Below are positions 2,911-15,790 of a stretch of 17,067 nucleotides of DNA, one piece after another. Below the pieces are notes generated by a model. It saw only the letters and a list, made by a program, of their open reading frames with translations. It did not search any database and was not told the DNA's origin. Where the stretch lies: the NCBI GenBank assembly GCA_050293845.1, contig JBNKNM010000114.1, positions 1 to 17,067 of the forward strand. Reading direction: 5' to 3'. How positions within the stretch are numbered: the first letter of the stretch is position 1; the number at the start of each line of letters is the position of its first letter. The position numbers and the translations under genes are program-made. The DNA is from Pseudobacteriovorax sp. Its GTDB lineage: Bacteria > Bdellovibrionota_B > Oligoflexia > Oligoflexales > Oligoflexaceae.

Positions 2911-3711
2911 ATGACTTGGAAAGCCCAGCTGCAGCTCAATTATCGCATGAATGGCGGTCGTATTAGCTTTAAGGCACATCACACAGGTCCACTACTTGTG
3001 CAAAAGCCTTATCTCCACAATAACGAAAAAAATCTTCATCATTATATTCTCCACCCACCAGGAGGACTTGTTGGAGGCGATACCTTACACACAGAAGTAA
3101 ATTTACAGGATGATGTTAGCATTCTGTTAACGTCTCCTTCTGCGCAAAAGGTATACCGATCCCAGCAAAAAACTGCTCTGAGTTCGCTTACGACTAAAAT
3201 TGCCAATGGTGCAATATTATCCTGGCTACCTCAAGAGACGATTCTTTTTGATAATAGCCATTTCAAATCTGTTAGCGACATTCATATGAAATCTGAGTCC
3301 AGCCTCATTCTCTGGGAAATATTCGTATTCGGCCGCCCCAGCATTCAGGAAGTCCATAACAAAGCCAGTATTGATAGCACATTACGTATCTTTGTAGAGG
3401 ACCAGCCCATCCTCATAGATCGATACCTAAAAGCTCCCCTTGAAAAAGGGCGCTCACTTTTTTCTGGAGTACAGAATTTCAACTGCTATGGACAGCTAAT
3501 CATTGTGTCACCAGATCTCAAACTTCTTCAAGACGAACATTTGCCTGGAAGATCAGAGCATATTTCCTGGACGCGATATGGGAACATGCTACAATTTCGT
3601 TTTTTAGGAAACTCAGCCTACGACGCCAGGCGACACTTAGAACAAACGATAACCCAATATCATGATTCAACGGGTCGTTATTATACAAAGCCTAGGATTT
3701 GGGCTTATTAA
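2911..3711 (+). CDS. ureD: Urease accessory protein UreD
   Basis: Motifs [52 protein letters not shown] and C-terminal PRIW; lies immediately upstream of ureA. Confidence 0.95.
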
Positions 3712-3721
3712 GGGAGGTTCT

Positions 3722-4024
3722 GTGGAACTAACACCGAGAGAAAAAGATAAACTGCTGTTATTCACCGCGTCCTTACTCGCTGAACGTCGCTTAGCAAAAG
3801 GCCTCAAACTTAACTATCCCGAAGCTGTGGCACTGCTTTCAGCATTTGTCCTAGAAGGTGCCAGAGAAGGAAAATCTGTTGCCGAACTCATGTCCTCAGG
3901 AAGGGAGATTTTAAGGCGTAAAGATGTTATGGGGGGAATACCCGAAATGATTCCTGAAATACAGGTTGAAGCTACTTTCAAAGATGGTACCAAGCTTGTT
4001 ACGATCCACCATCCCATTCAATGA
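3722..4024 (+). CDS. ureA: Urease gamma subunit
   Basis: GTG at 3722 after AGGGAGG gives the canonical 100-aa [14 protein letters not shown]...GLKLNYPEA...EGAREGK...[19 protein letters not shown]. The ORF-track start at 3662 is an over-extension. Confidence 0.97.
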
Positions 4025-4032
4025 GGTCTCAT

Positions 4033-4341
4033 ATGATTCCTGGAGAAATTAAGGTTAGCGATGCAGACATCACCATCAACGCTAACCGGGAAACAAAGAC
4101 CATCGTAGTGGCGAACACAGGTGATCGCCCGATTCAGATAGGTTCCCACTTTCACTTTTATGAAACTAATGATGCGCTAACGTTTGATAGAAGCATAACT
4201 AAAGGTTTTCGACTCAATATTCCCGCTGGTACAGGAATGAGATTTGAACCAGGTCAAGAACGACAGGTGGAGTTAGTAAAGTTTGTCTCACCGACAGAGA
4301 TATATGGATTTTCTGGAAAAATTATGGGCTCAGTGGAGTAA
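4033..4341 (+). CDS. ureB: Urease beta subunit
   Basis: MIPGEI...[19 protein letters not shown]...[20 protein letters not shown] 4033 follows GAGG; an alternative ATG at 4021 overlaps the ureA stop. Confidence 0.97.
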
Positions 4342-4344
4342 TCA

Positions 4345-6039
4345 GTGAAAAAAATTTCAAGACAAGCCTATGTAGATATGTACGGTCCCACCGTTGGGGA
4401 TAAGATCCGTCTCGGTGATACAGAATTATGGATCTCTATCGAGAAAGATTTTTGCAGATATGGCGAAGAAGTTAAATTTGGAGGTGGCAAAGTCATCCGG
4501 GATGGGATGGGCCAAAGCCAGCGGCTGGCTAGCGACTGTATGGACACAGTGATCACAAATGCCACTATCATCGATCATTGGGGTATAGTCAAAGCCGATA
4601 TTGGTATCAAAAATGGCAGAATTGCCGTCATTGGTAAAGCTGGAAACCCGGATATCCAAGGACCAGTGGACATGATCATTGGAGCATCAACAGAAATCAT
4701 CGCCGCTGAAGGGGATATCGTCACAGCAGGTGGCATTGACGCCCATGTGCACTTTATTTGCCCCCAGCAAATCGACGAGGCCCTAGCATCGGGTATTACC
4801 ACGATGTTGGGAGGTGGTACGGGACCAGCTACAGGAACTAATGCAACAACTTGTACTCCAGGTGCCTGGCACATCAGTCAAATGCTGCGTGCTGTTGACC
4901 AAATTCCCTTAAATTTTGGTTTTTTGGGCAAGGGAAATGCTAGCCTACCCCAGCCTCTCATGGAACAAGTGGAGGCGGGTGCCATTGGGTTAAAGTTGCA
5001 TGAGGATTGGGGAACGACACCTGCAGCCATTGATAATTGCTTATCTGTCGCCGACGACTTGGACGTACAGGTTGCTATCCATACCGATACTCTAAATGAA
5101 TCCGGTTTCGTAGAAACTACTTTAGCGGCACTAAAGGGTCGTACTATTCACACATACCACACAGAAGGTGCTGGTGGTGGCCATGCTCCAGACATCATTA
5201 AAGCCTGTGGACTGGAAAACGTGCTACCATCATCCACAAACCCTACTATGCCTTATACCGTGAATACCATTGACGAACACCTAGATATGCTCATGGTCTG
5301 CCACCACCTTGACTCTGCGATACCCGAGGATGTAGCCTTCGCTGACTCACGTATTCGTCGAGAAACCATAGCTGCCGAGGACATCCTGCATGATATGGGA
5401 GCTATTAGCATGATTGCTTCTGATTCCCAAGCCATGGGCCGGGTGGGAGAGGTCATCTGCAGGACTTGGCAAACAGCTCATAAAATGAAGCTTCAGCGTG
5501 GCCCCTTATCTGACACTGATGGCTCTGATAATTTTAGGGTAAAGCGCTATATTGCCAAATACACCATTAATCCAGCTATAACCCATGGAATATCGCATCA
5601 TGTTGGCTCTATTGAAAAAGGAAAGCTGGCCGACCTAGTTCTCTGGAAGCCAGCATTTTTTGGGATTAAGCCTAAGCTTGTTATCAAAGGAGGCTCCATA
5701 ACCCTGGCAGCGATGGGTGACCCCAACGCTTCTATCCCCACTCCACAGCCGGTACTCTATCGCAATATGTTTGGCGGGATGGGGTCATCGACAAGCCAAA
5801 TTGCTTATCATTTCATTTCCCAGATTTCGATGAAAAATGTCACCAAATGGGGCCTCCAGAAGAAGCTGGCAGCCGTAACCCATACCAGATCCGTTAAAAA
5901 ACAGCATATGATTCACAATGGATTATGTCCTCATATAGCTGTAGATCCCCAAACCTATAGCGTAGTCGTTGATGGCCAAGAGTTAAGTTGCGACCCCTTA
6001 AGTGAGTTACCTCTTGCTCAGCGCTACCATCTTTTTTAG
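4345..6039 (+). CDS. ureC: Urease alpha (catalytic, dinickel) subunit
   Basis: All expected active-site motifs are intact: [19 protein letters not shown] (carbamylated Lys), [23 protein letters not shown], flap MVCHHL and SDSQAMGR; ends in [13 protein letters not shown] start. Confidence 0.99.
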
Positions 6040-6048
6040 GAAACACAA

Positions 6049-6471
6049 ATGCTAATGTTCTCGGAAAAAATTCAGCAATATAAGAAAATAAACCATGAAG
6101 TCCACTTGAGCTATCATGAGCGCCAGAAAAGTCGTCTTAATGTTGCTACAAATAGAGGGAAAAGTATTGGCATCATACTGCCCCGAGGCCAGGACTTAAA
6201 GTGCGGCGATACACTCCAATCGAACTGTGGCCAAGTACTTATGATTCGCGGCACCCCAGAACTGGTATCGATAATTAGGGCAGCTGGGAAACAACAAGCC
6301 TTAGCTGCTTACCATTTAGGTAATAGACATATTCCCGCTGCAGTTTTAGAAGGAGAACTCTGTTACCACAAAGATCATGTCATTGACGATATGATGGCAG
6401 GCCTCGGTTTCACTGTCGATCATGGCTACCGCATATTTACACCTCAAAAAGGAGCTTACCATAAACACTGA
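6049..6471 (+). CDS. ureE: Urease accessory nickel chaperone UreE (short His tail)
   Basis: RQKSRL...LPRG..L..GD, AAYHLGNRH (conserved dimer-interface His), DHVIDDM..GLG, F.P..GAY, then only HKH before the stop. Confidence 0.94.
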   Translation: MLMFSEKIQQYKKINHEVHLSYHERQKSRLNVATNRGKSIGIILPRGQDLKCGDTLQSNCGQVLMIRGTPELVSIIRAAGKQQALAAYHLGNRHIPAAVLEGELCYHKDHVIDDMMAGLGFTVDHGYRIFTPQKGAYHKH

Positions 6472-7111
6472 ACAGTGGATCCATCTGCTGAGAGTCTGCA
6501 GCCCTAATTTGCCCATTGGCGGTTTTTCATGGTCACAGGGATTAGAGGGTGCCGTGGGGCTGAACTGGATCAAGAACAGTCACGACCTCAAAAATTGGCT
6601 GCAGGACATCCTTAGTAATAGCCTCGCTTACAATGAAATTCCCATCATGGGACAAGTATATCGCGATACCGATGAAAGTATGGCCTTTTACAGCAATTTA
6701 CTGTTATCCCTTAAAGAAACCAGTGAGTTAAAGCATGAATCCATCCAAATGGGAAAGTCTCTCCACAGACTTATCCGAAGGCTCCACTCAGATATGGATG
6801 CTAGCAGCGAGGATTACCTCTACGAAATCAACTTGTCTTTGCTATTTAAGCACTTTAGCTTACCTATTCACACAGCCTTGAATAGCTATCTTTGGACCAT
6901 GATGGAAAACCAAGTCATGGCGGCGACTCGCCTTCTATCGCTTGGTCAATATGATGCTCAAAGTGTTCTTATGGAATTGCAAAAAACGATCGAAAATGCC
7001 GTAGCATTTGGCTTAGATCTACATCAAAAGCAAATAGGTCGGTCACTACCGGGCCTTTTTATCGCGAGTTCTTATCACGAACAACAGTATTGCCGACTCT
7101 TTCGCTCATAG
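6422..7111 (+). CDS. ureF: Urease accessory protein UreF (start uncertain: ATG 6422 or ATA 6461)
   Basis: SPNLPIGGFSWSQGLE, ETSELKHESIQMGKSL, ENQVMAATRLLSLGQ..AQ and C-terminal HEQQYCRLFRS. The UreF-like sequence begins near 6461, where AAGGAG precedes an ATA. Confidence 0.93.
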   Translation: MATAYLHLKKELTINTEQWIHLLRVCSPNLPIGGFSWSQGLEGAVGLNWIKNSHDLKNWLQDILSNSLAYNEIPIMGQVYRDTDESMAFYSNLLLSLKETSELKHESIQMGKSLHRLIRRLHSDMDASSEDYLYEINLSLLFKHFSLPIHTALNSYLWTMMENQVMAATRLLSLGQYDAQSVLMELQKTIENAVAFGLDLHQKQIGRSLPGLFIASSYHEQQYCRLFRS

Positions 7112-7120
7112 GAGACACCC

Positions 7121-7735
7121 ATGACTAATCAATTACGCATAGGAATAGGTGGGCCCGTTGGTTCTGGCAAAACGGCCCTTGTAAAAAATCTTTGCCGAGA
7201 ATTAAAAAATCGGTTTAGCATTGCGGTCGTAACCAACGACATCTATACCCGTGAAGATGCGCAGTTCTTAATTCATCACCAAGCACTTCCCGAAGAGCGC
7301 ATTATTGGGGTAGAAACTGGTGGCTGTCCTCATACAGCGATTCGTGAAGATGCTTCGATGAACTTGCAAGCGATTGATGACCTGTCTCAAAAGATACCTG
7401 ATCTTGAATTGGTTTTTGTAGAAAGCGGTGGAGACAATCTTAGTGCTACATTCAGTCCCGATTTATCTGACCTTACCATTTATGTCATCGACGTTGCCGC
7501 AGGAGACAAAATACCTCGTAAGGGAGGTCCTGGCATCACTCGATCAGACCTTCTTGTTATCAATAAAATCGACTTGGCTCCATACGTAGGGGCGTCTCTA
7601 GAAGTTATGAGTAGAGATGCCCAAAAAATGAGAGCTGAGCTCCCATTTATTTTCTCGAATCAAAAAACAGGGGAAGGGCTGAACGAAATCATTCAGTTCA
7701 TTAAAGAAAAAGGAATGCTGATCCCACATTCCTAA
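7121..7735 (+). CDS. ureG: Urease accessory GTPase UreG
   Basis: P-loop GGPVGSGKT, metal motif [23 protein letters not shown] and NKID. AGGAG lies 6 nt before the ATG. Confidence 0.98.
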
Positions 7736-7748
7736 AAAACTGCTTTCA

Positions 7749-7788
7749 AAAAACACCGTAGTTAGCAAATATTGACTACGGCGTTTTT
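7749..7788. terminator. Probable bidirectional intrinsic terminator after ureG
   Basis: AAAAACACCGTAGTTA-gcaaatat-TGACTACGGCGTTTTT forms a 16-position stem with a perfect CCGTAGT/ACTACGG core, one mismatch and one wobble, flanked by A and T tracts. It starts 13 nt after the ureG stop. Confidence 0.8.
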
Positions 7789-8175
7789 CATTAGAATCAT
7801 GATAAATTTGCGCAGCAGTCATTGATTGATATTAAAGCCAAGCTTTAAATTAAATTGTGCACGTCTTTTACTTTGTAATAGAGTGTTGCTCCTCTTCGAC
7901 TTGCTTTTCATTCAAGTAAAATCTTGCATACGAAGCATCACACGTCTATCCTATTCAATAGAAACTGCATCGTAATTAACGCCATATTTGAAAAATCCAT
8001 GGGAAAATTCTCAGGAGAGCCTTAATTGCCATGAATGTCATTGAATATATAAAGAGTTTTTCATCAAAACACGGAGCAAACACACATTATCGCAACTTTC
8101 CTCTTCATTGAGGAGGTTTTAACGTAAAAATGCCGAACAGAATTACTTTCACATCTGGGAATTTGGGATTAACCT

Positions 8176-8841
8176 TTGGAAGTATGGAATAAATATCATA
8201 ATATTATCATTCTGATTTTATCTATAGCTTGTCTATGGTGGCCCATTCCGGTTGTTATTATACCTATATTCTTTATATTATCGATTATTTTCTTGGGCAG
8301 TGTTCTTATGTCAGCAACTTTATTATATACACTAGCAAATATTATTACATTTATAAGATGGAGCCTCCTGGTAATAGTTCTGTTTCAAACCAACCTTTCC
8401 GTTCAAAGCATACTATTTTTAATCATTTTATTTTTAGATGGAGTAGATGGGTGGGCAGCTCGTAAGCTAAGACACGAATCAACATTTGGTGCATACTTCG
8501 ACATGGAACTAGACTCTACTTCTATTTTAATATTGACGCTACTGATTGTCAATCAATCACAAATAGGTCCCTATTTATTGCTAGTAGGGCTTGCCAGACC
8601 GCTGATGGTGATCCTTAAAAGGATATTCTGGAATCAAGTACAAGCGGAAAGACGCAGTAATTGGGGTCGAATCACTTATATTTTTGTTTTCCTCACATTA
8701 CTAGCCGAATTGTATTTCAACAGGTTGTGGAGTAAGTTTTTATGTCTCGCTTCCAGCATTATATTGATTTATTCGTTCTACCTTGATTGCCTGTTTTTTG
8801 AAAAGGTAAAATATTACAAACTAAAAGAAGTTTCGAAATGA
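8176..8841 (+). CDS. CDP-alcohol phosphatidyltransferase family membrane protein
   Basis: Exact family signature D-G-x2-A-R-x8-G-x3-D-x3-D (LDGVDGWAARKLRHESTFGAYFDMELD), plus ANIITFIR and multiple hydrophobic helices. TTG start with GGGA upstream; the start is uncertain. Confidence 0.92.
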   Translation: MEVWNKYHNIIILILSIACLWWPIPVVIIPIFFILSIIFLGSVLMSATLLYTLANIITFIRWSLLVIVLFQTNLSVQSILFLIILFLDGVDGWAARKLRHESTFGAYFDMELDSTSILILTLLIVNQSQIGPYLLLVGLARPLMVILKRIFWNQVQAERRSNWGRITYIFVFLTLLAELYFNRLWSKFLCLASSIILIYSFYLDCLFFEKVKYYKLKEVSK

Positions 8842-8848
8842 GGGGATC

Positions 8849-9616
8849 ATGGGCTTTGCCATAAACCGGAAAATCATTATTAAAGAATTGAAAAAACAAG
8901 CAATTAGATTTCCCAACAGGTCTATGAAACGCCCTTTTGTAACCTTAAGTTTTGCTCAATCATTGGATGGTTGCTTATCTGCAGGGCCAAACCAACAAAC
9001 GATAATTTCTCATCGTGAAAGTTCTATTCTTACGCATCAAATAAGATCACTACACCATGGTATACTGGTAGGTATCAATACTATTAAGATAGATAACCCC
9101 AAATTGAATGTTCGTCACATTAAAGGCCCTTCACCTAGAGTTATAATAATCGATCCCAATATGGAAACTCCCTTAGATAGCAAGATTTTTAGATTTATTA
9201 ATAAAAAACCCCCAATCATCATCTGTGATAATAAGACGGATATCGATAAAATTTCCGCGTTTAGACAACAATGCTCTGCTGAAGTGCTTGTATGCAATCT
9301 CAGTCAAGAGAATAATCTAGAAGATCCGCTAAACAAACTCTACGATTTAGGAATTAAGACTTTGATGGTAGAAGGTGGAGGAAAAACTATCTTTCGATTT
9401 ATTCAAGAAAAATTTGTTGATTACTTCGTCATGACGATAAGCCCCATGTTTCTAGGTTCAGAACAATCTATCAGATACAGTAATTTCAGTAATTCGATCA
9501 ATGATTTTATCAGTAAAGCCAACTATCAAAAAATTGGCACTGACATAGTAGTCTTTGGCTCATCATCTAGATACTGTGAGTCTGACGAATGGAGTACTGC
9601 TGTTGATAGTAAATAA
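8849..9616 (+). CDS. Stand-alone RibD C-terminal (pyrimidine reductase / DHFR-fold) protein
   Basis: RPFVTLSFAQSLDG, HQIRS...ILVGINTIKIDNPKLNVR, PRVIIID, TLMVEGGG and VD.F...ISPMFLG. No N-terminal deaminase domain (no HAE/PCxxC motif). GAGGGGA SD. Confidence 0.9.
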   Translation: MGFAINRKIIIKELKKQAIRFPNRSMKRPFVTLSFAQSLDGCLSAGPNQQTIISHRESSILTHQIRSLHHGILVGINTIKIDNPKLNVRHIKGPSPRVIIIDPNMETPLDSKIFRFINKKPPIIICDNKTDIDKISAFRQQCSAEVLVCNLSQENNLEDPLNKLYDLGIKTLMVEGGGKTIFRFIQEKFVDYFVMTISPMFLGSEQSIRYSNFSNSINDFISKANYQKIGTDIVVFGSSSRYCESDEWSTAVDSK

Positions 9617-10616
9617 TGTAAATCCTTGCCGACAAATACTATTCACAGGTTCTCGCCAGGTTCTGTTACGGGACTATAATCCCTACCCCCTTAAGGGTGA
9701 TGAAATCTTGATCAAAACTCTATACAGTGGTATCAGTGCAGGAAGCGAATGGTTGATTTATGCGGGACTCATTTCACAGAAATACAAACTTGATGAATCT
9801 ATTTCTGACCTTAATGACAATCTAAATTATCCATGTGCTTATGGTTATGCCAATATAGGTATAGTCACAGAGGTGGCCAATCCCATAAATGAACTACTTC
9901 TAGAAAAGATTGTTTTTAGCTTTAACCCTCATCAGGAATATAGTAAATCCTCGTATCAAATAGTATTTCCTTTACCTACATCAAAAAATGAATCAAAAAA
10001 ATATATTTTTTTGCCAAATTTAGAAACGGCTATTAGTTTAGTGATGGACGCGAATCCACTAATTGGTGAGAAGATAGCTATTATCGGTTCAGGAGTTGTC
10101 GGACATTTGGTAACCCAAATACTCAAATCAAATATAGGACTCGACATACATGTTATTGAACCAAGCAAATTTCGTCGTGACCTTTTAAAAAATTACCCTA
10201 TCACAGTTCATGATAATATAGGCGACTTACCCCAAAATATAGATCTAGTATTTGAATTATCTGGAAATATCGAAGCTTTACCACAAATTTATTCCCACTG
10301 CCGATGTGATAGCAGGATCATAGTTGGTTCCTGGTATGGTGATTACCAAAAATTTTCAATCCTAGACACCCAATTCCATCGTAAAAGGATCAGGCTAATA
10401 GGTTCTCAAGTAAGCAATATCAACCCTAATTTTAAGCATTTTCTAACTAAAGAAAAACGTTTTCATTTAGCCATTAAATTAATAAACCAGCTAGACCTTA
10501 ACTTATTAATCACCCACAATATTCCTTTTACACTGGCTGACAAAGCCTATAAATTACTAGAACAAGGCCCGGATCATTACATGCAAATTTGTTTAAACTA
10601 TGAGGATTATAAATGA
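9603..10616 (+). CDS. Medium-chain (MDR) alcohol dehydrogenase-like protein lacking the canonical catalytic Zn ligands
   Basis: EILIKTLYSGISAGSE, YGYANIG, PHQE, NLETA, Rossmann GEKIAIIGSGVVG, DLVFELSG, GSWYG, FHRKRIRLIGSQV and LITHNIPF. The probable start is TTG 9603, 8 nt after GGAG, rather than 9555. Confidence 0.88.
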   Translation: MIVNNVNPCRQILFTGSRQVLLRDYNPYPLKGDEILIKTLYSGISAGSEWLIYAGLISQKYKLDESISDLNDNLNYPCAYGYANIGIVTEVANPINELLLEKIVFSFNPHQEYSKSSYQIVFPLPTSKNESKKYIFLPNLETAISLVMDANPLIGEKIAIIGSGVVGHLVTQILKSNIGLDIHVIEPSKFRRDLLKNYPITVHDNIGDLPQNIDLVFELSGNIEALPQIYSHCRCDSRIIVGSWYGDYQKFSILDTQFHRKRIRLIGSQVSNINPNFKHFLTKEKRFHLAIKLINQLDLNLLITHNIPFTLADKAYKLLEQGPDHYMQICLNYEDYK

Positions 10617-10993
10617 ACTTTGAAGTTGGAATTCAGCAAGAATTTATAGCACAACACTTTTTGATAGGCGGCGATTGGGGAGATGAAAACACCCCACACT
10701 CTCATCATTTTAAAATAGAAATTATACTAAAATCCTCCGAGCTTGATCATCATAATTACGTTGCTGATATTGCTGTATTAAAGAATAAATTGGACAATGT
10801 AGTATGTCATTTTAAAGACAAATTATTAAACGACTTATCTGAATTTCATAACGAAAATCCTAGTATAGAATTATTTTCAAAAATACTTTGGAATAAAATT
10901 TTCGGTAACATCGAAACTCCCAATATAAAACTTGCTACAATCCGTCTTTGGGAAGACGATATTTCATGGGCTACTTATGAAAAAGTTCCCTAA
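10613..10993 (+). CDS. 6-pyruvoyltetrahydropterin synthase / QueD-fold (COG0720) protein, non-canonical active site
   Basis: 126-aa T-fold pattern F.AQH...HSHHFKIE...D...LK...LND...NPSIE...LWE. Three His Zn ligands (H15, H29, H31) are present, but there is no catalytic Cys before HxH. ATGA overlap with the upstream gene; GAGGA SD. Confidence 0.9.
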   Translation: MNFEVGIQQEFIAQHFLIGGDWGDENTPHSHHFKIEIILKSSELDHHNYVADIAVLKNKLDNVVCHFKDKLLNDLSEFHNENPSIELFSKILWNKIFGNIETPNIKLATIRLWEDDISWATYEKVP

Positions 10994-11930
10994 TCCGAAA
11001 ATTAAATTTTTTGTTCCACTAACATCGGAATTAATCAGTGGAGGAACACTTTACAATTTAAAGGTGTTCCAGGATTTATTAAATATTGACGCCGATATTA
11101 AGTTGGAAGAAATTAGCCTTCATCATAAGGTGGAAAGTCGCCATATTGGAAATCATGAAGATGTTATATTAGTAGACGGTTTATTGCTCGGAAATGTAAA
11201 TTTCATTCATGATACAAGAAAAAAAGTACTTATTCTCCACGGCCCTCACTTACCAAAGAACCTAATAACCAAACCATTTACCCATATTGTCCTTGTCAGT
11301 GAAGACCTAAAAAGCCGATTTATAGCAAATGTCGGCAAAAAACCGATAACTGTCAGCGTCATAAGCCCTGGCACAGACCATTTTTCCTACGGTAAATCTA
11401 CAGAGAGCCCTCCTCACTCCATGTGTACAATCGGCGCTATAACTCCAGACAAAGACCAAGGAATTCTGGTGGATGCATTAGCAAGTGTCTCATCAAAAAA
11501 ATGGCAGCTACATATGATTGGTTCGTGTAAGCGAAATACCAAATATTATCAATATATCATCGAAAGAATTCGCAAGTATAAACTAAATGACAATATAACA
11601 ATTCACGGTGAACTTAATCACCCACAAATCTTTGAAATATTCTTAAAAACTAATCTCTACATTGTATCTTCCCCCTATGAATCATTTGGTATTACAGCTT
11701 TCGAAGCTTTAAACGCTGGTATTCCCGTACTAAATTGTTCGGACGGCTTTTTAAAAAAAGCAATAGGTCATAGGCAAGGCTGGCAAGTACCGTATAGATG
11801 CCCGGTAAACATCGCTAGATTTATCACTCTTTGGCTAGAAGGTAAAATACCACATATCAACCCCATGGTCATAAATAACCGTTGGATTGATGCCGCTTAT
11901 TCATACAAAGCAATTCTGGACAATCTATAG
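10977..11930 (+). CDS. Glycosyltransferase family 4 (GT-B, retaining)
   Basis: N-terminal SGGTLYN, VDGL, LILH, ISPGTD, IGAITPDKDQ and the E-x7-E motif YESFGITAFEALNAGIPV. Probable start is ATG 10977, overlapping the end of the PTPS gene. Confidence 0.92.
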   Translation: MKKFPNPKIKFFVPLTSELISGGTLYNLKVFQDLLNIDADIKLEEISLHHKVESRHIGNHEDVILVDGLLLGNVNFIHDTRKKVLILHGPHLPKNLITKPFTHIVLVSEDLKSRFIANVGKKPITVSVISPGTDHFSYGKSTESPPHSMCTIGAITPDKDQGILVDALASVSSKKWQLHMIGSCKRNTKYYQYIIERIRKYKLNDNITIHGELNHPQIFEIFLKTNLYIVSSPYESFGITAFEALNAGIPVLNCSDGFLKKAIGHRQGWQVPYRCPVNIARFITLWLEGKIPHINPMVINNRWIDAAYSYKAILDNL

Positions 11931-12046
11931 AAATCATTATTGTTTTAAGCCTGATTTCAGCCTTGAGGGAGGCGCACAATGATATCTCTAATAACATCAT
12001 TATACTTTCATATAATAAAAAGCATAATCATTTTGAGGCAACGAAC

Positions 12047-13570
12047 ATGAAGAGTTTAATGAGTTTTATCTACTTAGTGATATTAAATACTACATTAATT
12101 CCAAAATCAGACCTTACTTGGGCAACTGCTTTAACACCAAATTACGATTTACTATTTATAGTCGGAATAGTTTTATTCTTGCCATCACTTACTATTATGA
12201 TATCTATAATTTGCTCTATAAATTATTTTTTAAACTTAACTGATTTAGCACTCTTATATTTCCTCAATAAAAACTTATATCTTGGACTTGATTATCGATT
12301 AATAGTTGATTTAAACAACTTTGGAACTATGAGTTATGGTTTTAGTTTCTACCTAATCTACCTTTTACTCTTACTAGCTTTTGTCATCTTTATACAAGGA
12401 ATAATGACACTTTTAAAAAAAATAAGTCATCATTTTAAGCTTCAAAAAAAGTTTTATCCGTTAGTTCTAATAGTGGGTATACCTATATGTCACGAAGTCC
12501 ATCATAAAATCCAAGCAAACAAAAGTTTTATATTCAGAAATATAAAAAAATCAGTTGTAAGCTTTGATAATAAAGATTCCCTATTAGCCTTTCAGAGAGA
12601 GATAAATGACTCAATTGCTAGATTTACATCAATAGATTACAATGTTCAATTCAATAAACCCAATATATACATATTTTTTATCGAATCGTATGGTCTATCA
12701 ACTCTAAGGATTGATAAGAACGTCTCTAATTTCCTTCAAAACTTACCTCAAGAGTTGAATAATAGACATCAGAAATACTTTTCTGGAATATTAGAATCTC
12801 CCGTATTTGGCGGTCAATCATGGATGGCATATGCTAGCTTAAATTGTGGCCTCCATGTTGATAATCAACTTAAATTTAAGTCTATATTTAGAAGTCAAGT
12901 AAAATGTCTTCCGGAAATCTTAAAAAATTATGGCTATTTCTCTATTGAAATAAAACCAGGAACCAAGCAACCTCTACTCAAAGAAGAAATAGAAAAATAT
13001 AAGTTTGATAAAAGTATAATAGCAAAAGACTTAGATTATCACAGCATTCCCATAGGATGGGGAGCAATTCCTGACGAGTACAGCCTGGCTCGATTTTTCC
13101 TTGATCTGTTGCCGAGTTTTCCAAAAAAACCTAAACTAATTGAGTTTTTTCTTGTCAGTTCGCATACACCCTGGGAGTATGAAATACCCATTTTGGGAAT
13201 AGAAAAAAAATTGATCAATGATTTTGGTAGAAGTTACAATTCGATTGAACTAAAGAAAATAGAAGATACAGACCTAGCTTATACCCGATCTATTCTCTAC
13301 GACTTGAAGCTAATTAAAACTGTTATCCAAAAATTTACAACAAGAGATGATATTATTATAATCTTAGGAGACCACCCTCCAAACAACATCGTTTCAAATT
13401 TCTACAATTTGAACCTTGTCCCCATTCACGTGATTACTCCTCATTGGATAGGCGGTTTCGAGGAGTTTTTATCCCATGGATTAATTCCAGATACGGAAAA
13501 AGATATTATACAAATGAAAGATTTTTCAGAACGATTTCTACGAACATTATTCAAGAAAAAGCTTCTTTAG
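12047..13570 (+). CDS. Membrane-anchored alkaline-phosphatase-superfamily (LtaS/sulfatase-like) protein
   Basis: About 4-5 N-terminal hydrophobic helices, then PNIYIFFIESYG (metal Glu), SPVFGGQSW (candidate Ser nucleophile), PDEYSL, LVSSHTPW, IIIILGDHPP and VPIHVI. No CxPxR/SxPxR formylglycine motif. Probable start is ATG 12047 after GAGG; the ORF track gives TTG 11963. Confidence 0.82.
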   Translation: MKSLMSFIYLVILNTTLIPKSDLTWATALTPNYDLLFIVGIVLFLPSLTIMISIICSINYFLNLTDLALLYFLNKNLYLGLDYRLIVDLNNFGTMSYGFSFYLIYLLLLLAFVIFIQGIMTLLKKISHHFKLQKKFYPLVLIVGIPICHEVHHKIQANKSFIFRNIKKSVVSFDNKDSLLAFQREINDSIARFTSIDYNVQFNKPNIYIFFIESYGLSTLRIDKNVSNFLQNLPQELNNRHQKYFSGILESPVFGGQSWMAYASLNCGLHVDNQLKFKSIFRSQVKCLPEILKNYGYFSIEIKPGTKQPLLKEEIEKYKFDKSIIAKDLDYHSIPIGWGAIPDEYSLARFFLDLLPSFPKKPKLIEFFLVSSHTPWEYEIPILGIEKKLINDFGRSYNSIELKKIEDTDLAYTRSILYDLKLIKTVIQKFTTRDDIIIILGDHPPNNIVSNFYNLNLVPIHVITPHWIGGFEEFLSHGLIPDTEKDIIQMKDFSERFLRTLFKKKLL

Positions 13571-13606: not shown

Positions 13607-14788
13607 CTACTCAAGTAATAAATTTTTTACAGAATATTCCTTAAATAGGTCCTCAGCTAAACCTAACACATCATGATTACTACCACTACTCAGTCGAAAA
13701 GAAAGTGCGGCATATTCATGAAGAGTCATTTGTGCCATATCACGTTGTTTGTTGCGATCTAGCCATCGCGCTAAAGCTAACCAAACTAGCATTTCCTTAT
13801 CAATATTTCGCAATAGTTTTATTTTATCAAAAATTTCCTCAAGTTTCTGTAGCCGGGTCACAAGAGGAATTGATTTATCATATGCAACTTCTATCGAATT
13901 CACTATTTTGAAAAATGTTCCTGCACTTCTTAGTTTTAATTCCTTCTTCCTTGCTAGAGTTCGGACTTTAGGGAGTTGAAGCATAATTTTAAAACCAGAA
14001 GTACAATAACTCCAAAGATAGTACTCTAAAATATATGATGGCTTATAGTGGCTTGATCCTGCCTTTACAAGATCACCGATTCCATTAATATCTTTCTGGG
14101 AACTTGCATTTATACAAGCATGTTCCCAGATAAGTTCCGTTTGAAAACGTGAGTCGATGTCATTCGTGCTGCTATAATCTTCTATCATTCTGAGAGAATG
14201 TTCATAATCACCTCGAAAGCGATAAGCCCTTATTTTATTCACTAAATAATAGCCAAACATTTGATGATCAGGTTTCAAATCCTCACTTAAATAACTTAAG
14301 GCTAATTCTGTATTGCCCAATCGCAATGCTTTTAAACCAAATAAATAATTTTGATAGACTTCCCCACCAGAATTTTGTGTGGGACTTTGGATCTTAGATA
14401 AGTTCTGTTGCCAGGCTGCCTTCCAAAAATTTCCTTCTTTTTGTGCAAAAAGACTCTTTAGGGTATGAAAATCCCCGTATAAAACTGATAACTTTCCGGT
14501 GGTGTTAGGAACCCGATGTACCAGCAATAGGGTATAGGCTAAGTCAAATAAGCCCTTGGCTTCCTCATATGACAATACATCAAATTGAACATGTTGAGAA
14601 AGAGTTGAAAATATATATATCAACCGTTTAAGCTGACCTTCAGGGCTAGAATTTTCCAACTCCGAAACCCGCTCTAAAGAATATAGTACACGTTCCTCGC
14701 GTCCATGTTCATTCTCGATTTCGTCTAACTCTTTAACAACATCTACTTTAGTTGTTTCGAATAATTTATATTTCCAAACAGCCGACAT
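13607..14788 (-). CDS. Hypothetical all-helical (TPR-like) cytoplasmic protein
   Basis: 393-aa ORF with no signal peptide and TPR-like helix pairs (GLKALRLGNTELALSYL; KIRAYRFRGDYEHSLRMI; EGNFWKAAWQQ). Starts 3 nt after the lipoprotein stop. Confidence 0.75.
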   Translation of the reverse strand: MSAVWKYKLFETTKVDVVKELDEIENEHGREERVLYSLERVSELENSSPEGQLKRLIYIFSTLSQHVQFDVLSYEEAKGLFDLAYTLLLVHRVPNTTGKLSVLYGDFHTLKSLFAQKEGNFWKAAWQQNLSKIQSPTQNSGGEVYQNYLFGLKALRLGNTELALSYLSEDLKPDHQMFGYYLVNKIRAYRFRGDYEHSLRMIEDYSSTNDIDSRFQTELIWEHACINASSQKDINGIGDLVKAGSSHYKPSYILEYYLWSYCTSGFKIMLQLPKVRTLARKKELKLRSAGTFFKIVNSIEVAYDKSIPLVTRLQKLEEIFDKIKLLRNIDKEMLVWLALARWLDRNKQRDMAQMTLHEYAALSFRLSSGSNHDVLGLAEDLFKEYSVKNLLLE

Positions 14789-14791
14789 ATG

Positions 14792-15790
14792 TTACTTCCA
14801 TTCAATATATATCGAACGAGTTAAATCAGGATTCAGAATTTCCCTTCTGGCTAGTACCACCCAGTTCAACTCATCTTGACTACCTAAAATACTAATACTA
14901 TCAGGAACACATTCTCCTAAAGAATTTTCTGTGTGACTATTAATCTTAACAGCATCAACAACCATCGGAATAGTTTGAAACTCAACCTGAAACCAAGTAT
15001 TCTCTACAGCATCAAAGGGAGGATTAGAAGAAAAAACCTCCGTTTCGCTTTCCCAGTAAATCGTATCATTAACTAGTCCATGAGAGGTAGGAGCAAGGCT
15101 CGTTGAAGCTGAAGTAAGAACAGGAGCTCCCCCTATGGATTCTTGACCAGTCTCAAAATCATAATTATTAGCAAAAGCTATTCCATTATCGTAAAAAATA
15201 ATACTGGAAATACAAACATTGGGACCAGTTATAGGCAACCTCCCAATAGATTCAATCTTAAACCGCAAGTAATTGAAAGTTACAGATTCGCTTTTTATCA
15301 AAGCCTGAGCAATCCTAGTGGTGATATCAAGTTGTTTTCCACTGTTTTTAAATACACCATCGGCTGATAATAACGTCTCTCTGTAAATCTCAGAAAGGGA
15401 GATATCTCCGTAAGGTTCTATATTTACATCAAAATTTATAGGATAGTATGGATCGTCACTAACTAATTTATTAAAAGCTAAAGGGAAGGCACTCCTTATA
15501 CTGTATTCAAAATCGACAATTTCAGATGAAACATTAATTAATACTCTGTTTTCATTGGCTATTCCACAGCTAAAATTTGATCGTTGTTTGTTGATAGATG
15601 ATTCTTTACACTTGATAATATAGCCTGGGATACCAGGATTTTCTTCGGACGGTCGATTATCATTATTTTTGGTTTTATCCTGCCCATCAACAATTGGCAG
15701 TCTCTGAACATTACCTTCAATGGGGCTAGAACTATTGCAAGACGAAATGAATCCAATTCCAAGCAGATACAATAACAAAACTTTAAACAT
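14792..15790 (-). CDS. Lipoprotein with C-terminal discoidin/F5-8C-like (galactose-binding fold) domain
   Basis: Signal peptide and lipobox MFKVLLLYLLGIGFISSC; GAGGAG SD at 15801-15796. C-terminal WFQVEFQ..PMVVDAVKI...PDSISILGSQDELNWVVL matches the discoidin W.qvdf...P..f.i.gS.D...W pattern. Confidence 0.78.
   Translation of the reverse strand: MFKVLLLYLLGIGFISSCNSSSPIEGNVQRLPIVDGQDKTKNNDNRPSEENPGIPGYIIKCKESSINKQRSNFSCGIANENRVLINVSSEIVDFEYSIRSAFPLAFNKLVSDDPYYPINFDVNIEPYGDISLSEIYRETLLSADGVFKNSGKQLDITTRIAQALIKSESVTFNYLRFKIESIGRLPITGPNVCISSIIFYDNGIAFANNYDFETGQESIGGAPVLTSASTSLAPTSHGLVNDTIYWESETEVFSSNPPFDAVENTWFQVEFQTIPMVVDAVKINSHTENSLGECVPDSISILGSQDELNWVVLARREILNPDLTRSIYIEWK

Follow-up and report, generated by a model that had tools for sequence, protein, structure and literature searches.

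A six-gene cluster of Pseudobacteriovorax sp. as a probable trimmed copy of a widespread orphan cassette that may carry GTP-derived glycosides to lipids and the cell envelope

We analyzed a six-gene cluster of Pseudobacteriovorax sp. (GenBank assembly GCA_050293845.1) located on contig JBNKNM010000114.1 (C114), the whole of which, 17,067 bases out of a 6.68-Mb genome of 741 contigs, is called the window in the following. The first gene, g1 (8176-8841, +), encodes a short CDP-alcohol phosphotransferase of 221 amino acids (Pfam CDP-OH_P_transf, PF01066, E 4.5e-16) and is followed by g2 (8849-9616, +), coding for a RibD_C-type pyrimidine reductase that lacks the deaminase domain (PF01872, E 5e-34), and by g3 (9555-10616, +), the product of which is an MDR-type dehydrogenase devoid of the catalytic zinc ligands (ADH_zinc_N, E 1.5e-6, below the cut-off). 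The gene g4 (10613-10993, +) encodes a protein with the PTPS/QueD fold (T-fold; PF01242, E 1.6e-24), g5 (10932-11930, +) a GT4 glycosyltransferase (Glycos_transf_1, PF00534, E 3.2e-20), and g6 (11963-13570, +) a membrane-anchored LtaS/EptA-like enzyme of the alkaline phosphatase superfamily (Pfam Sulfatase, E 3.6e-4, below the cut-off).

The genes are tightly packed. A gap of 7 nucleotides (nt) separates g1 from g2, and g3 and g4 share the 4 nt ATGA. The overlap of g2 and g3 measures 62 nt and shrinks to 14 nt with the TTG at 9603 as a possible start of g3; that of g4 and g5 is also 62 nt, or 17 nt from the ATG at 10977, which on reading the sequence is the likelier start of g5. Between g5 and g6 there are 32 nt, or 116 nt from the likely g6 start, the ATG at 12047, with which the 507-residue database form of g6 (P0121) begins. 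On the upstream side the cluster is bounded by a terminator-like hairpin (7756-7781, +) with a stem of 10 pairs and a subsequent T run, which ends the preceding urease operon 394 nt before g1. An Rfam scan of the leader (7700-8300) matched no riboswitch or other family. Reading the leader by eye we noticed two tiny open reading frames (ORFs), one of about 26 codons (8032-8112, +) and one of about 20 codons (8131-8193, +) that is preceded by GGAGG and overlaps the TTG start of g1 in another frame; they could be chance or a leader peptide. A preliminary description of the locus, made from the sequence, had reported six co-oriented genes, the first five overlapping or at most 7 nt apart, and had named the six families. 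The ORF coordinates and junctions bear out the former and the Pfam matches the latter, the weak match of g6 being backed by its fold. It had also held that the cluster does not belong to the riboflavin, folate or queuosine pathway, and indeed the window contains no gene of these pathways, all three of which are represented elsewhere in the genome.

The match of g1 to PF01066 (60 bits, cut-off 22) includes the full motif D(x)2DG(x)2AR(x)8G(x)3D(x)3D at residues 88-113, and D88, D91, G92, A95, R96, G105, D109 and D113 are invariant in all 18 short forms aligned. Over 210 residues g1 is 30% identical to a short CDP-alcohol enzyme that adjoins an LtaS-like gene in another locus (L023). As a PgsA, PssA or PIP synthase g1 missed the NCBIfam equivalog cut-offs (30.5 versus 180; 30.9 versus 109.1); the nearest named models, those for archaetidylinositol-phosphate synthase (3e-7) and for PgsA (3.5e-7), were matched with scores well short of their cut-offs, and a bifunctional inositol-phosphate enzyme of NCBIfam was matched weakly (6.1e-5).

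For g6 we built an AlphaFold model from a 29-row alignment (mean pLDDT 87.2), in which N-terminal helices extend to about residue 194 and are followed by an α/β domain. A Foldseek search of the PDB with this model returned as top matches LtaP (E 7.8e-10, the best), LtaS, a Vibrio alkaline-phosphatase-superfamily protein, GacH, full-length MCR-1 (4.7e-8), PbgA and EptA (4.3e-7), at sequence identities of 11-18%. The modeled protein thus has the architecture of LtaS, EptA, GacH and OpgB, i.e. membrane helices plus an extracytoplasmic domain of the alkaline phosphatase fold. All 29 sequences aligned have E213, S258, H373, D442 and H443, which are candidates for the metal and nucleophile positions of LtaS-type enzymes; we presume these roles from motif likeness (ES.G, GG.SW, GDH) and not from a residue-level structural superposition. 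The nearest named relative, from Pseudobacteriovorax antillogorgiicola, is 38% identical, and UniRef calls a Pseudobacteriovorax relative (P0123) phosphoglycerol transferase. A complex prediction for g6 and g1 scored 0.00 against a mark of 0.32, which weighs neither for nor against an interaction.

The relation between these two membrane enzymes became apparent on the level of protein architecture. A profile made from seven members of the g6 family collected 1,249 cluster representatives at E ≤1e-30, and among the best 150 of them 25 comprise at least 637 residues. A Pfam scan identified an N-terminal CDP-OH_P_transf domain in 21 of these 25 long proteins; of the other four, two match no family and two Sulfatase only. 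One more fusion of the g1 and g6 families (P0129) came from a word-based search, and in all ten fusions checked the CDP-alcohol motif is intact. Where the two proteins are separate, their genes are frequently neighbors, a CDP-alcohol gene being present in 27 of 80 g6-centred metagenome loci, mostly directly upstream on the same strand, and, among the 36 loci that include no less than 1.5 kb of flank on either side, lying within 2.5 kb of the g6 relative in 19. The short CDP-alcohol enzyme and the LtaS-like enzyme are a two-part module that joins the GTP-derived core described below or other partners, and we think it probable that g1 and g6 act as coupled synthase and transferase. That the CDP-alcohol enzyme passes its product to the LtaS-like enzyme, as had been proposed beforehand, is thereby backed at the architecture level by natural fusions of both families.

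Other partners are found in a group of loci (L090, L114, L139, L158 and L162, partly also L087 and L164) where CDP-alcohol, LtaS-like, flippase-like and GT4 genes are accompanied by an ABC importer that replaces the biosynthetic genes. In L158 (9084-16617) the order is short CDP-alcohol enzyme, LtaS-like protein, LPG_synthase_TM, NMT1/THI5-type binding protein, ABC ATPase, ABC permease and GT4, and no genes of the GTP pathway were found in L158, L090, L114, L139 or L162. This arrangement looks like an import-fed version of the membrane module and hints weakly at a possible uptake, in place of synthesis, of the head-group precursor. We also observed that genes for YceI-like proteins, which are periplasmic lipid or polyisoprenoid binders, recur beside the cassette (L009, L019, L021, L066, L074, L075) and beside the LtaS-like gene (L135, L138, L151, L158, L159). 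Such neighbors fit lipid handling outside the inner membrane.

Turning to the cytoplasmic enzymes, the RibD_C domain of g2 scores 118.3 bits (cut-off 24.1), and its best solved relatives are 2,5-diamino-6-ribosylamino-pyrimidinone 5'-phosphate reductases (4HA7, E 1.2e-23; 2AZN, E 3.1e-21), with the scores staying below both NCBIfam equivalog cut-offs (136.2 versus 150.15; 107.6 versus 186.45). In related loci the RibD_C gene is immediately preceded by, or fused to, a gene for GTP cyclohydrolase II (PF00925, E ~1e-70). The Tyr residue aligned to Tyr105 of Escherichia coli RibA is kept in 40 of 40 in-cluster copies of this enzyme, picked by their EGRGxG motif, and therefore the normal diaminopyrimidine product is expected rather than a formylated one, which we take to be the product of Streptomyces coelicolor SCO6655, presumably with Met at this position. 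Hence we regard it as likely that the substrate of the cassette derives from GTP via GTP cyclohydrolase II. The GTP origin suggested earlier is backed by the presence of this gene in 27 of 49 related loci with full flanks (defined below).

The dehydrogenase g3 does not qualify as a zinc-dependent MDR alcohol dehydrogenase, as the zinc ligands are absent while the Rossmann motif is present (GSGVVG). The preliminary assignment as a zinc-ligand-less MDR protein applies to the entire family, since in an alignment of 64 sequences Ser and Tyr, within S..S.GTE and YGY, occupy what we take to be the positions of the Cys and His ligands of zinc alcohol dehydrogenases, with GxGxVG kept. Its ADH_zinc_N score is 28.7 bits (cut-off 31.8), and the BchC model was matched (5.4e-12) far below its cut-off. 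For g5, membership in GT4 is clear from the score (72.8 bits versus 26.4) and from the E-x7-E motif (YESFGITAFE), which is kept in the window and in its 69-sequence family. In the Pfam scan the sole hint of a defence or phage function is a weak GT4-conflict match beneath stronger GT4 matches.

The T-fold protein g4 carries E25 at the position of the catalytic Cys of QueD, within the sequence E25-N-T-P-H29-S-H31. All 20 relatives aligned share H15, E25, H29, H31, W113 and E114 with g4, so the zinc histidines of the HxH pair are kept and the earlier description as a Cys-less PTPS protein is confirmed. In the T-fold enzymes PTPS and QueD a conserved Glu binds the 2-amino-4-oxo ring, and g4 retains it as E114. 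As judged from these residues and from the reductase g2, the cassette intermediate would keep a guanine-type 2-amino-4-oxo ring, because the cassette has no deaminase, together with a ribityl phosphate chain. The closest named relative of g4 is from Oligoflexus sp. (52%), and the best solved one is SCO6650 (3D7J, E 5e-6), aligned over the full length; the HSH motif aligns with HGH of QueD2. The CxxxHGH motif that defines QueD/PTPS-I (PMC5041015) is lacking in g4, the TIGR03367 score is 43 with a cut-off of 89.25, and no queC, queE or queF was found in the window. We also rejected PTPS-III, characterized by ExxHGH (PMC5041015), as the Glu of g4 is one residue further from the His. PTPS-IV, whose signature is FGPAQ (PMC5445326), was rejected as well: the absence of Cys does agree, but the aligned place reads WGDEN in g4 and [WF]GxEN in 20 of 20 relatives. 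According to PMC5041015, PTPS-IV is tied to F420 (unpublished) and PTPS-V is unclear. By these sequence features we read the g4 family as a sister group, distinct from PTPS-IV, QueD and PTPS-III, and the name 6-carboxytetrahydropterin synthase, under which its relatives are found in public databases, is probably wrong for it.

To assess how widespread the gene set is, an alignment of g4 relatives was run against a set in which each species is represented by a single genome. Of 600 listed pattern matches 567 were confirmed, placing the family in at least 567 species genomes. Neighborhoods were counted in the best 80 loci, which stem mostly from Chloroflexota and Gammaproteobacteria and are not mutually independent; their ORFs were clustered, the clusters were named by Pfam on six sample loci, and all loci were rescored with cluster profiles. 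Forty-nine of these loci extend at least 6 kb to either side of the PTPS-like gene (full-flank loci), and in them we found, within 8 kb of that gene, GT4 in 48, a methyltransferase-like gene of about 300 codons in 41, the MDR dehydrogenase in 39, RibD_C in 34, GTP cyclohydrolase II in 27, the CDP-alcohol phosphotransferase in 24, the LPG_synthase_TM membrane protein (MprF-flippase-type) likewise in 24, DUF7475 in 14, the LtaS-like protein in 5 and YceI in 4. The usual order is GTP cyclohydrolase II, RibD_C, MDR, PTPS-like, GT4, methyltransferase-like, and the order of g2 to g5 on one strand is that of most of the 80 loci. All six window families occur together in six of the 80 loci (L023, L064, L065, L069, L070, L076), the four cytoplasmic families co-occurring far more often.

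The hosts include Chloroflexota, Gammaproteobacteria, Oligoflexia, Calditrichia, Desulfobacterota and haloarchaeal plasmids, and the cultured Cellvibrio fontiphilus KCTC 52237 has the full set including the LtaS-like gene (L064, L069). The same families recur in the same order in several phyla, so the grouping goes beyond chance, and we are all but certain that it is a real conserved cassette. The co-occurrence of the six families in other genomes, proposed as a check beforehand, was thus found in these six loci, and also in two genomes belonging to the same family as the Pseudobacteriovorax sp. studied here. As for the six-gene operon itself, the genes stand as described, but as a set they represent a trimmed variant in which the LtaS-like gene is a minority accessory (5 of 49). 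The earlier statement that similar sets exist in haloarchaea and Streptomyces held in part. Haloarchaeal plasmids carry g4 homologues of 30-38% identity, and on a Halobellus limi plasmid the annotated neighbors of the homologue are an MDR dehydrogenase and a methyltransferase, whereas none of the set lies beside the homologue on a Streptomyces plasmid (25.6%). A literature search found no paper on the cassette or its product and no solved pathway that matches, in agreement with the earlier remark that no end product had been identified; most subscription journals were outside this search, so it is not proof. Among the metagenome-assembled records bearing the cassette we noticed two labeled Klebsiella pneumoniae (L014) and Thermoflexus hugenholtzii JAD2 (L022). 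The gene content of L014 resembles loci of uncultured Gammaproteobacteria, and its label may be a binning or naming error.

The copy in the window has no GTP cyclohydrolase II, methyltransferase-like or flippase-like gene within the cluster. The genome provides a stand-alone GTP cyclohydrolase II on C62 that scores 216.6 bits with the cassette profile, compared with 50.8 and 56.7 for two RibBA genes. In a tree of GTP cyclohydrolase II the rows from this genome sat on very long branches (4.98 and 10) and the careful search was unfinished, so the profile scores were used for the C62 gene instead. Two LPG_synthase_TM genes lie elsewhere in the genome, and on C157 (L082) a second short CDP-alcohol enzyme, of 226 residues, is encoded next to a methyltransferase-like gene, to which the cassette profile gives 96.9 bits (5939-6778 and 6965-7645, -, beside genes for a P-type ATPase and a Na/Ca exchanger); the pair could represent what the cassette lacks here, or else another, smaller system. 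The genome also has a GTP cyclohydrolase I, another PTPS-family gene (C167) and a separate rib operon with RibBA on C21, the latter recognized from gene sizes and order and not by Pfam. Owing to the GTP cyclohydrolase I and the other PTPS-family gene the cassette is no replacement for folate or queuosine synthesis, and a variant of the riboflavin, folate or queuosine pathway was rejected on the grounds of these genes and the RibBA genes.

The cluster has a GC content of 33.7%, the genome one of 41.2%, and among 962 windows of 5.4 kb the cluster falls into the bottom 0.5%. Of the genomes of 40 relatives, 21 belong to the same family and 19 to the rest of the order; a g4 homologue turned up in four of the former and in none of the latter, and the only same-genus genome (G001, 94% complete) gave no hit. 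Of the four genomes with a homologue, G002 has the window's architecture and G004 all six families; G008 has GTP cyclohydrolase II and methyltransferase-like genes and no LtaS-like gene, and G005 has only the RibD_C, MDR and PTPS-like genes. Taken together, the six genes are an intact, trimmed copy of a widespread orphan cassette, gained probably by horizontal transfer.

On this basis we propose the following pathway. GTP cyclohydrolase II, here supplied from another contig, would convert GTP to 2,5-diamino-6-ribosylamino-pyrimidinone 5'-phosphate, and g2 would reduce the ribosyl to a ribityl group while the guanine-type 2-amino-4-oxo ring is kept. The enzymes g3 and g4 would then rework the side chain, perhaps with closure of a pterin-like ring. 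More speculatively, oxidation of the ribityl 2'-hydroxyl by the MDR enzyme might give the same keto-amine that GTP cyclohydrolase I makes via an Amadori rearrangement, and this keto-amine could close to a dihydroneopterin-like pterin serving as substrate for g4. A sugar would be added by g5. Next, g1 would join the resulting alcohol to a CDP-activated lipid, most simply CDP-diacylglycerol, giving a special phospholipid on the inner face of the membrane, a flippase-like protein would move it across, and on the outer face g6 would take the phospho-head group off the lipid and pass it to an envelope acceptor, leaving diacylglycerol. Phospholipid head groups are moved to envelope acceptors in this way in the PgsA/LtaS, phosphatidylethanolamine/EptA and phosphatidylglycerol/GacH/OpgB systems, and by analogy with these the g1 step, the membrane crossing and the g6 transfer would follow one another. 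The donor lipid would be a special one because its synthase is dedicated and often fused.

The steps of this pathway differ in strength, the membrane part being better supported than the cytoplasmic chemistry. The simplest candidate for the head group is the glycosylated product of g2 to g5, to which we give an even chance of being correct. For the chain as a whole, from a GTP-derived glycoside via a lipid head group to LtaS/EptA-type surface transfer, with substrates, products and acceptor deduced from the gene set, we see the balance as level. A wider reading, which we offer tentatively and hold to be possible rather than probable, is that many phyla make a new class of phospholipid with a glycosylated GTP-derived 2-amino-4-oxo head group that a dedicated LtaS-like enzyme, in many cases fused to the synthase, transfers to the envelope; candidates for the heterocycle would be a ribitylaminopyrimidine or a pterin formed without GTP cyclohydrolase I. 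The interpretation given in the preliminary description, a GTP-derived glycoside loaded onto a lipid or phosphodiester and transferred outside the inner membrane, is therefore supported in part, at the level of gene architecture, i.e. by co-occurrence, GTP cyclohydrolase II and fusions; the product may be lipid-linked and may be a pterin or a ribitylaminopyrimidine, to be passed to a putative acceptor.

Several observations weigh against the proposed pathway. The LtaS-like gene is rare among the full-flank loci, and the flippase-like gene, the usual companion of the CDP-alcohol enzyme in almost every other copy, is missing from the window. Core genes were present in only four of the 13 g6-centred loci that reach 6 kb or more in both directions, and the g6 family therefore also works in other contexts. 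No cytidylyltransferase was found in the cluster, so that we presume the CDP donor. None of the six proteins attains a curated NCBIfam cut-off and hence no specific known activity can be assigned to any of them, and g3 deviates from its own family consensus at some conserved positions. Finally, the importer-type loci do not fix the ligand, as the NMT1/THI5-type binding-protein family is versatile and, according to PMC4418817, is connected with riboflavin (RibY), thiamine pyrimidine or methionine.

Two explanations are the main rivals of the proposed pathway. First, the roles might be reversed, with g1 and g6 making and transferring an ordinary head group such as glycerol phosphate or inositol phosphate, and the GTP-derived glycoside or an envelope glycan being the acceptor. 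GacH and OpgB move phosphoglycerol onto envelope acceptors, and GacH is among the fold matches of g6; the UniRef name of P0123, the nearest models of g1 (archaetidylinositol-phosphate synthase and PgsA, far below cut-offs) and the occurrence of the g6 family without core genes point in the same direction. Yet ordinary phospholipid donors are abundant, making a dedicated and often fused CDP-alcohol enzyme unnecessary, g1 is only distantly PgsA-like, and a glycoside made in the cytoplasm would need an exporter, none of which was found in the window. We consider this arrangement unlikely.

The second rival is a soluble product, i.e. a glycosylated pterin or ribitylaminopyrimidine acting as cofactor, pigment or signal, for which the CDP-alcohol enzyme would form a phosphodiester and the LtaS-like protein would be a phosphatase or an accessory. 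Di-myo-inositol-phosphate synthase is a CDP-alcohol enzyme that forms a soluble phosphodiester, and the weak match of g1 to the bifunctional inositol-phosphate enzyme is consistent with such a reaction. Moreover, 25 of the 49 full-flank loci have no nearby CDP-alcohol gene and 44 no LtaS-like gene, so the core can stand alone, and soluble pteridine glycosides exist in cyanobacteria (PMC3546692). However, the CDP-alcohol gene travels with the flippase-like LPG_synthase_TM gene (24 and 24 of 49), a soluble cytoplasmic product hardly accounts for CDP-alcohol enzymes that are fused to an outward-facing LtaS-type domain, and genes of YceI-like periplasmic lipid binders recur nearby, which leaves a soluble product a minor prospect in our estimate.

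A toxoflavin-like or other bioactive secondary metabolite derived from GTP, with the membrane enzymes providing self-protection or export, is very improbable. Paralogues of GTP cyclohydrolase II in Streptomyces serve non-flavin pathways according to PMC13151069, and the patchy distribution and low GC content of the cluster suggest transfer; on the other hand, typical secondary-metabolite enzymes, regulators and exporters were not found in the window, the set is conserved in at least five phyla including free-living Chloroflexota and Gammaproteobacteria, and its membrane module is of the envelope-modifying type. Scarcely credible is a decayed or chance grouping, a remnant without joint function in this genome, since the lack of three families that most copies have, the atypical GC content and the failure to find the genes in the same-genus genome are set against six open frames with intact family motifs, junctions that overlap as in a translationally coupled operon, two same-family genomes with all six families, one of them in the same order, and the presence of the missing GTP cyclohydrolase II and methyltransferase-like genes elsewhere in the genome.

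The remainder of the window contains, at its 5' end, an efflux pair on the reverse strand (HlyD-type and OEP), followed by the complete urease operon ureD-A-B-C-E-F-G (2911-7735) upstream of the cluster. Within ureC (4345-6039), antisense to this gene for the urease alpha subunit, Rfam matched the small RNA family 5_ureB_sRNA (RF02514; 4497-4780, -) over the full model with 122.8 bits at a gathering score of 40. This RNA is, we believe, the one described in Helicobacter, and the match may merely mirror conservation of the coding sequence. Downstream of g6 there are three genes on the reverse strand, the third being a CheA-like ATPase fragment. The other two (13607-14788, - and 14792-15790, -) matched no Pfam and no NCBIfam family. 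The former encodes a protein of 393 residues with five paralogues in its own genome (24-32% identity), the latter a lipoprotein-like protein of 332 residues with one (34%), and both resemble lineage-specific expanded families.

The gene set is of interest as it occurs in at least 567 species genomes and has no product identified in the literature searched. If the proposed pathway is true, bacterial membrane and envelope chemistry would gain a new head group and a new kind of surface decoration, and a new branch would lead off the first steps of riboflavin synthesis, giving an intermediate of the latter a new fate. The pathway would also explain a T-fold subfamily that is publicly annotated as QueD, probably wrongly. 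The synthase-transferase fusions imply that one protein should both make and consume a lipid, and Cellvibrio fontiphilus KCTC 52237 offers a practical model for the full cassette.

Comparison with known systems indicates that the kind of system, synthesis of a head group followed by LtaS/EptA-type transfer, is known, whereas a GTP-derived cargo is apparently unprecedented in the literature searched. With QueD/PTPS-I and PTPS-III the protein g4 shares the PTPS fold, the zinc histidines and the ring-binding Glu; unlike QueD, it has Glu at the Cys position and no queC, queE or queF nearby. With SCO6650, the PTPS-IV protein of COG0720, it shares a T-fold without catalytic Cys, but where g4 and its 20 relatives read [WF]GxEN..HSH, SCO6650 has FGPAQRLHGA and lacks the HxH pair. 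SCO6650 presumably lies near the variant GTP cyclohydrolase II SCO6655, which differs, by the Met we assume in it, from the in-cluster enzymes with their Tyr.

The closest solved relatives of g2 tie the cassette to the early riboflavin steps of archaea and fungi, where GTP cyclohydrolase II and a Rib7/ArfC-type reductase act before deamination, and the placement of GTP cyclohydrolase II upstream of or fused to RibD_C agrees with this order. The cassette departs from the riboflavin pathway in that genes for a deaminase, a lumazine synthase and a riboflavin synthase are missing from it, and g2 remains below the equivalog cut-offs. Cyanopterin carries a methylated sugar, to which the GT4 and methyltransferase-like pair of the cassette forms a parallel. 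The pterins of the cyanobacterial glycosides, however, come from GTP cyclohydrolase I and are soluble. As described in PMC3546692, a glycosyltransferase (BGluT, PgtA/slr1166) there likewise acts on a GTP-derived heterocycle, a likeness by description. The preliminary description assigned these cyanobacterial enzymes to GT4.

The nearest counterparts of the membrane module are the PgsA/LtaS, EptA/MCR-1 and GacH/OpgB systems, in which a CDP-alcohol phosphotransferase makes the phospholipid inside the cell, as g1 would do. Like the LtaS/EptA-type enzymes g6 has a multi-helix anchor and an outward alkaline-phosphatase-superfamily domain, the invariant Glu, Ser, His and Asp-His at its core being candidate counterparts of the LtaS residues, and in related loci a flippase-like protein accompanies the pair as in PgsA/LtaS-type systems. 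The candidate nucleophile of g6 is Ser, whereas that of LtaS and EptA is, we presume, Thr. Unlike PgsA and LtaS, for which we know of no coupling or fusion, the cassette pair is genetically coupled and often fused, and its head group is apparently GTP-derived instead of being glycerol phosphate or ethanolamine as in the PgsA and EptA systems.

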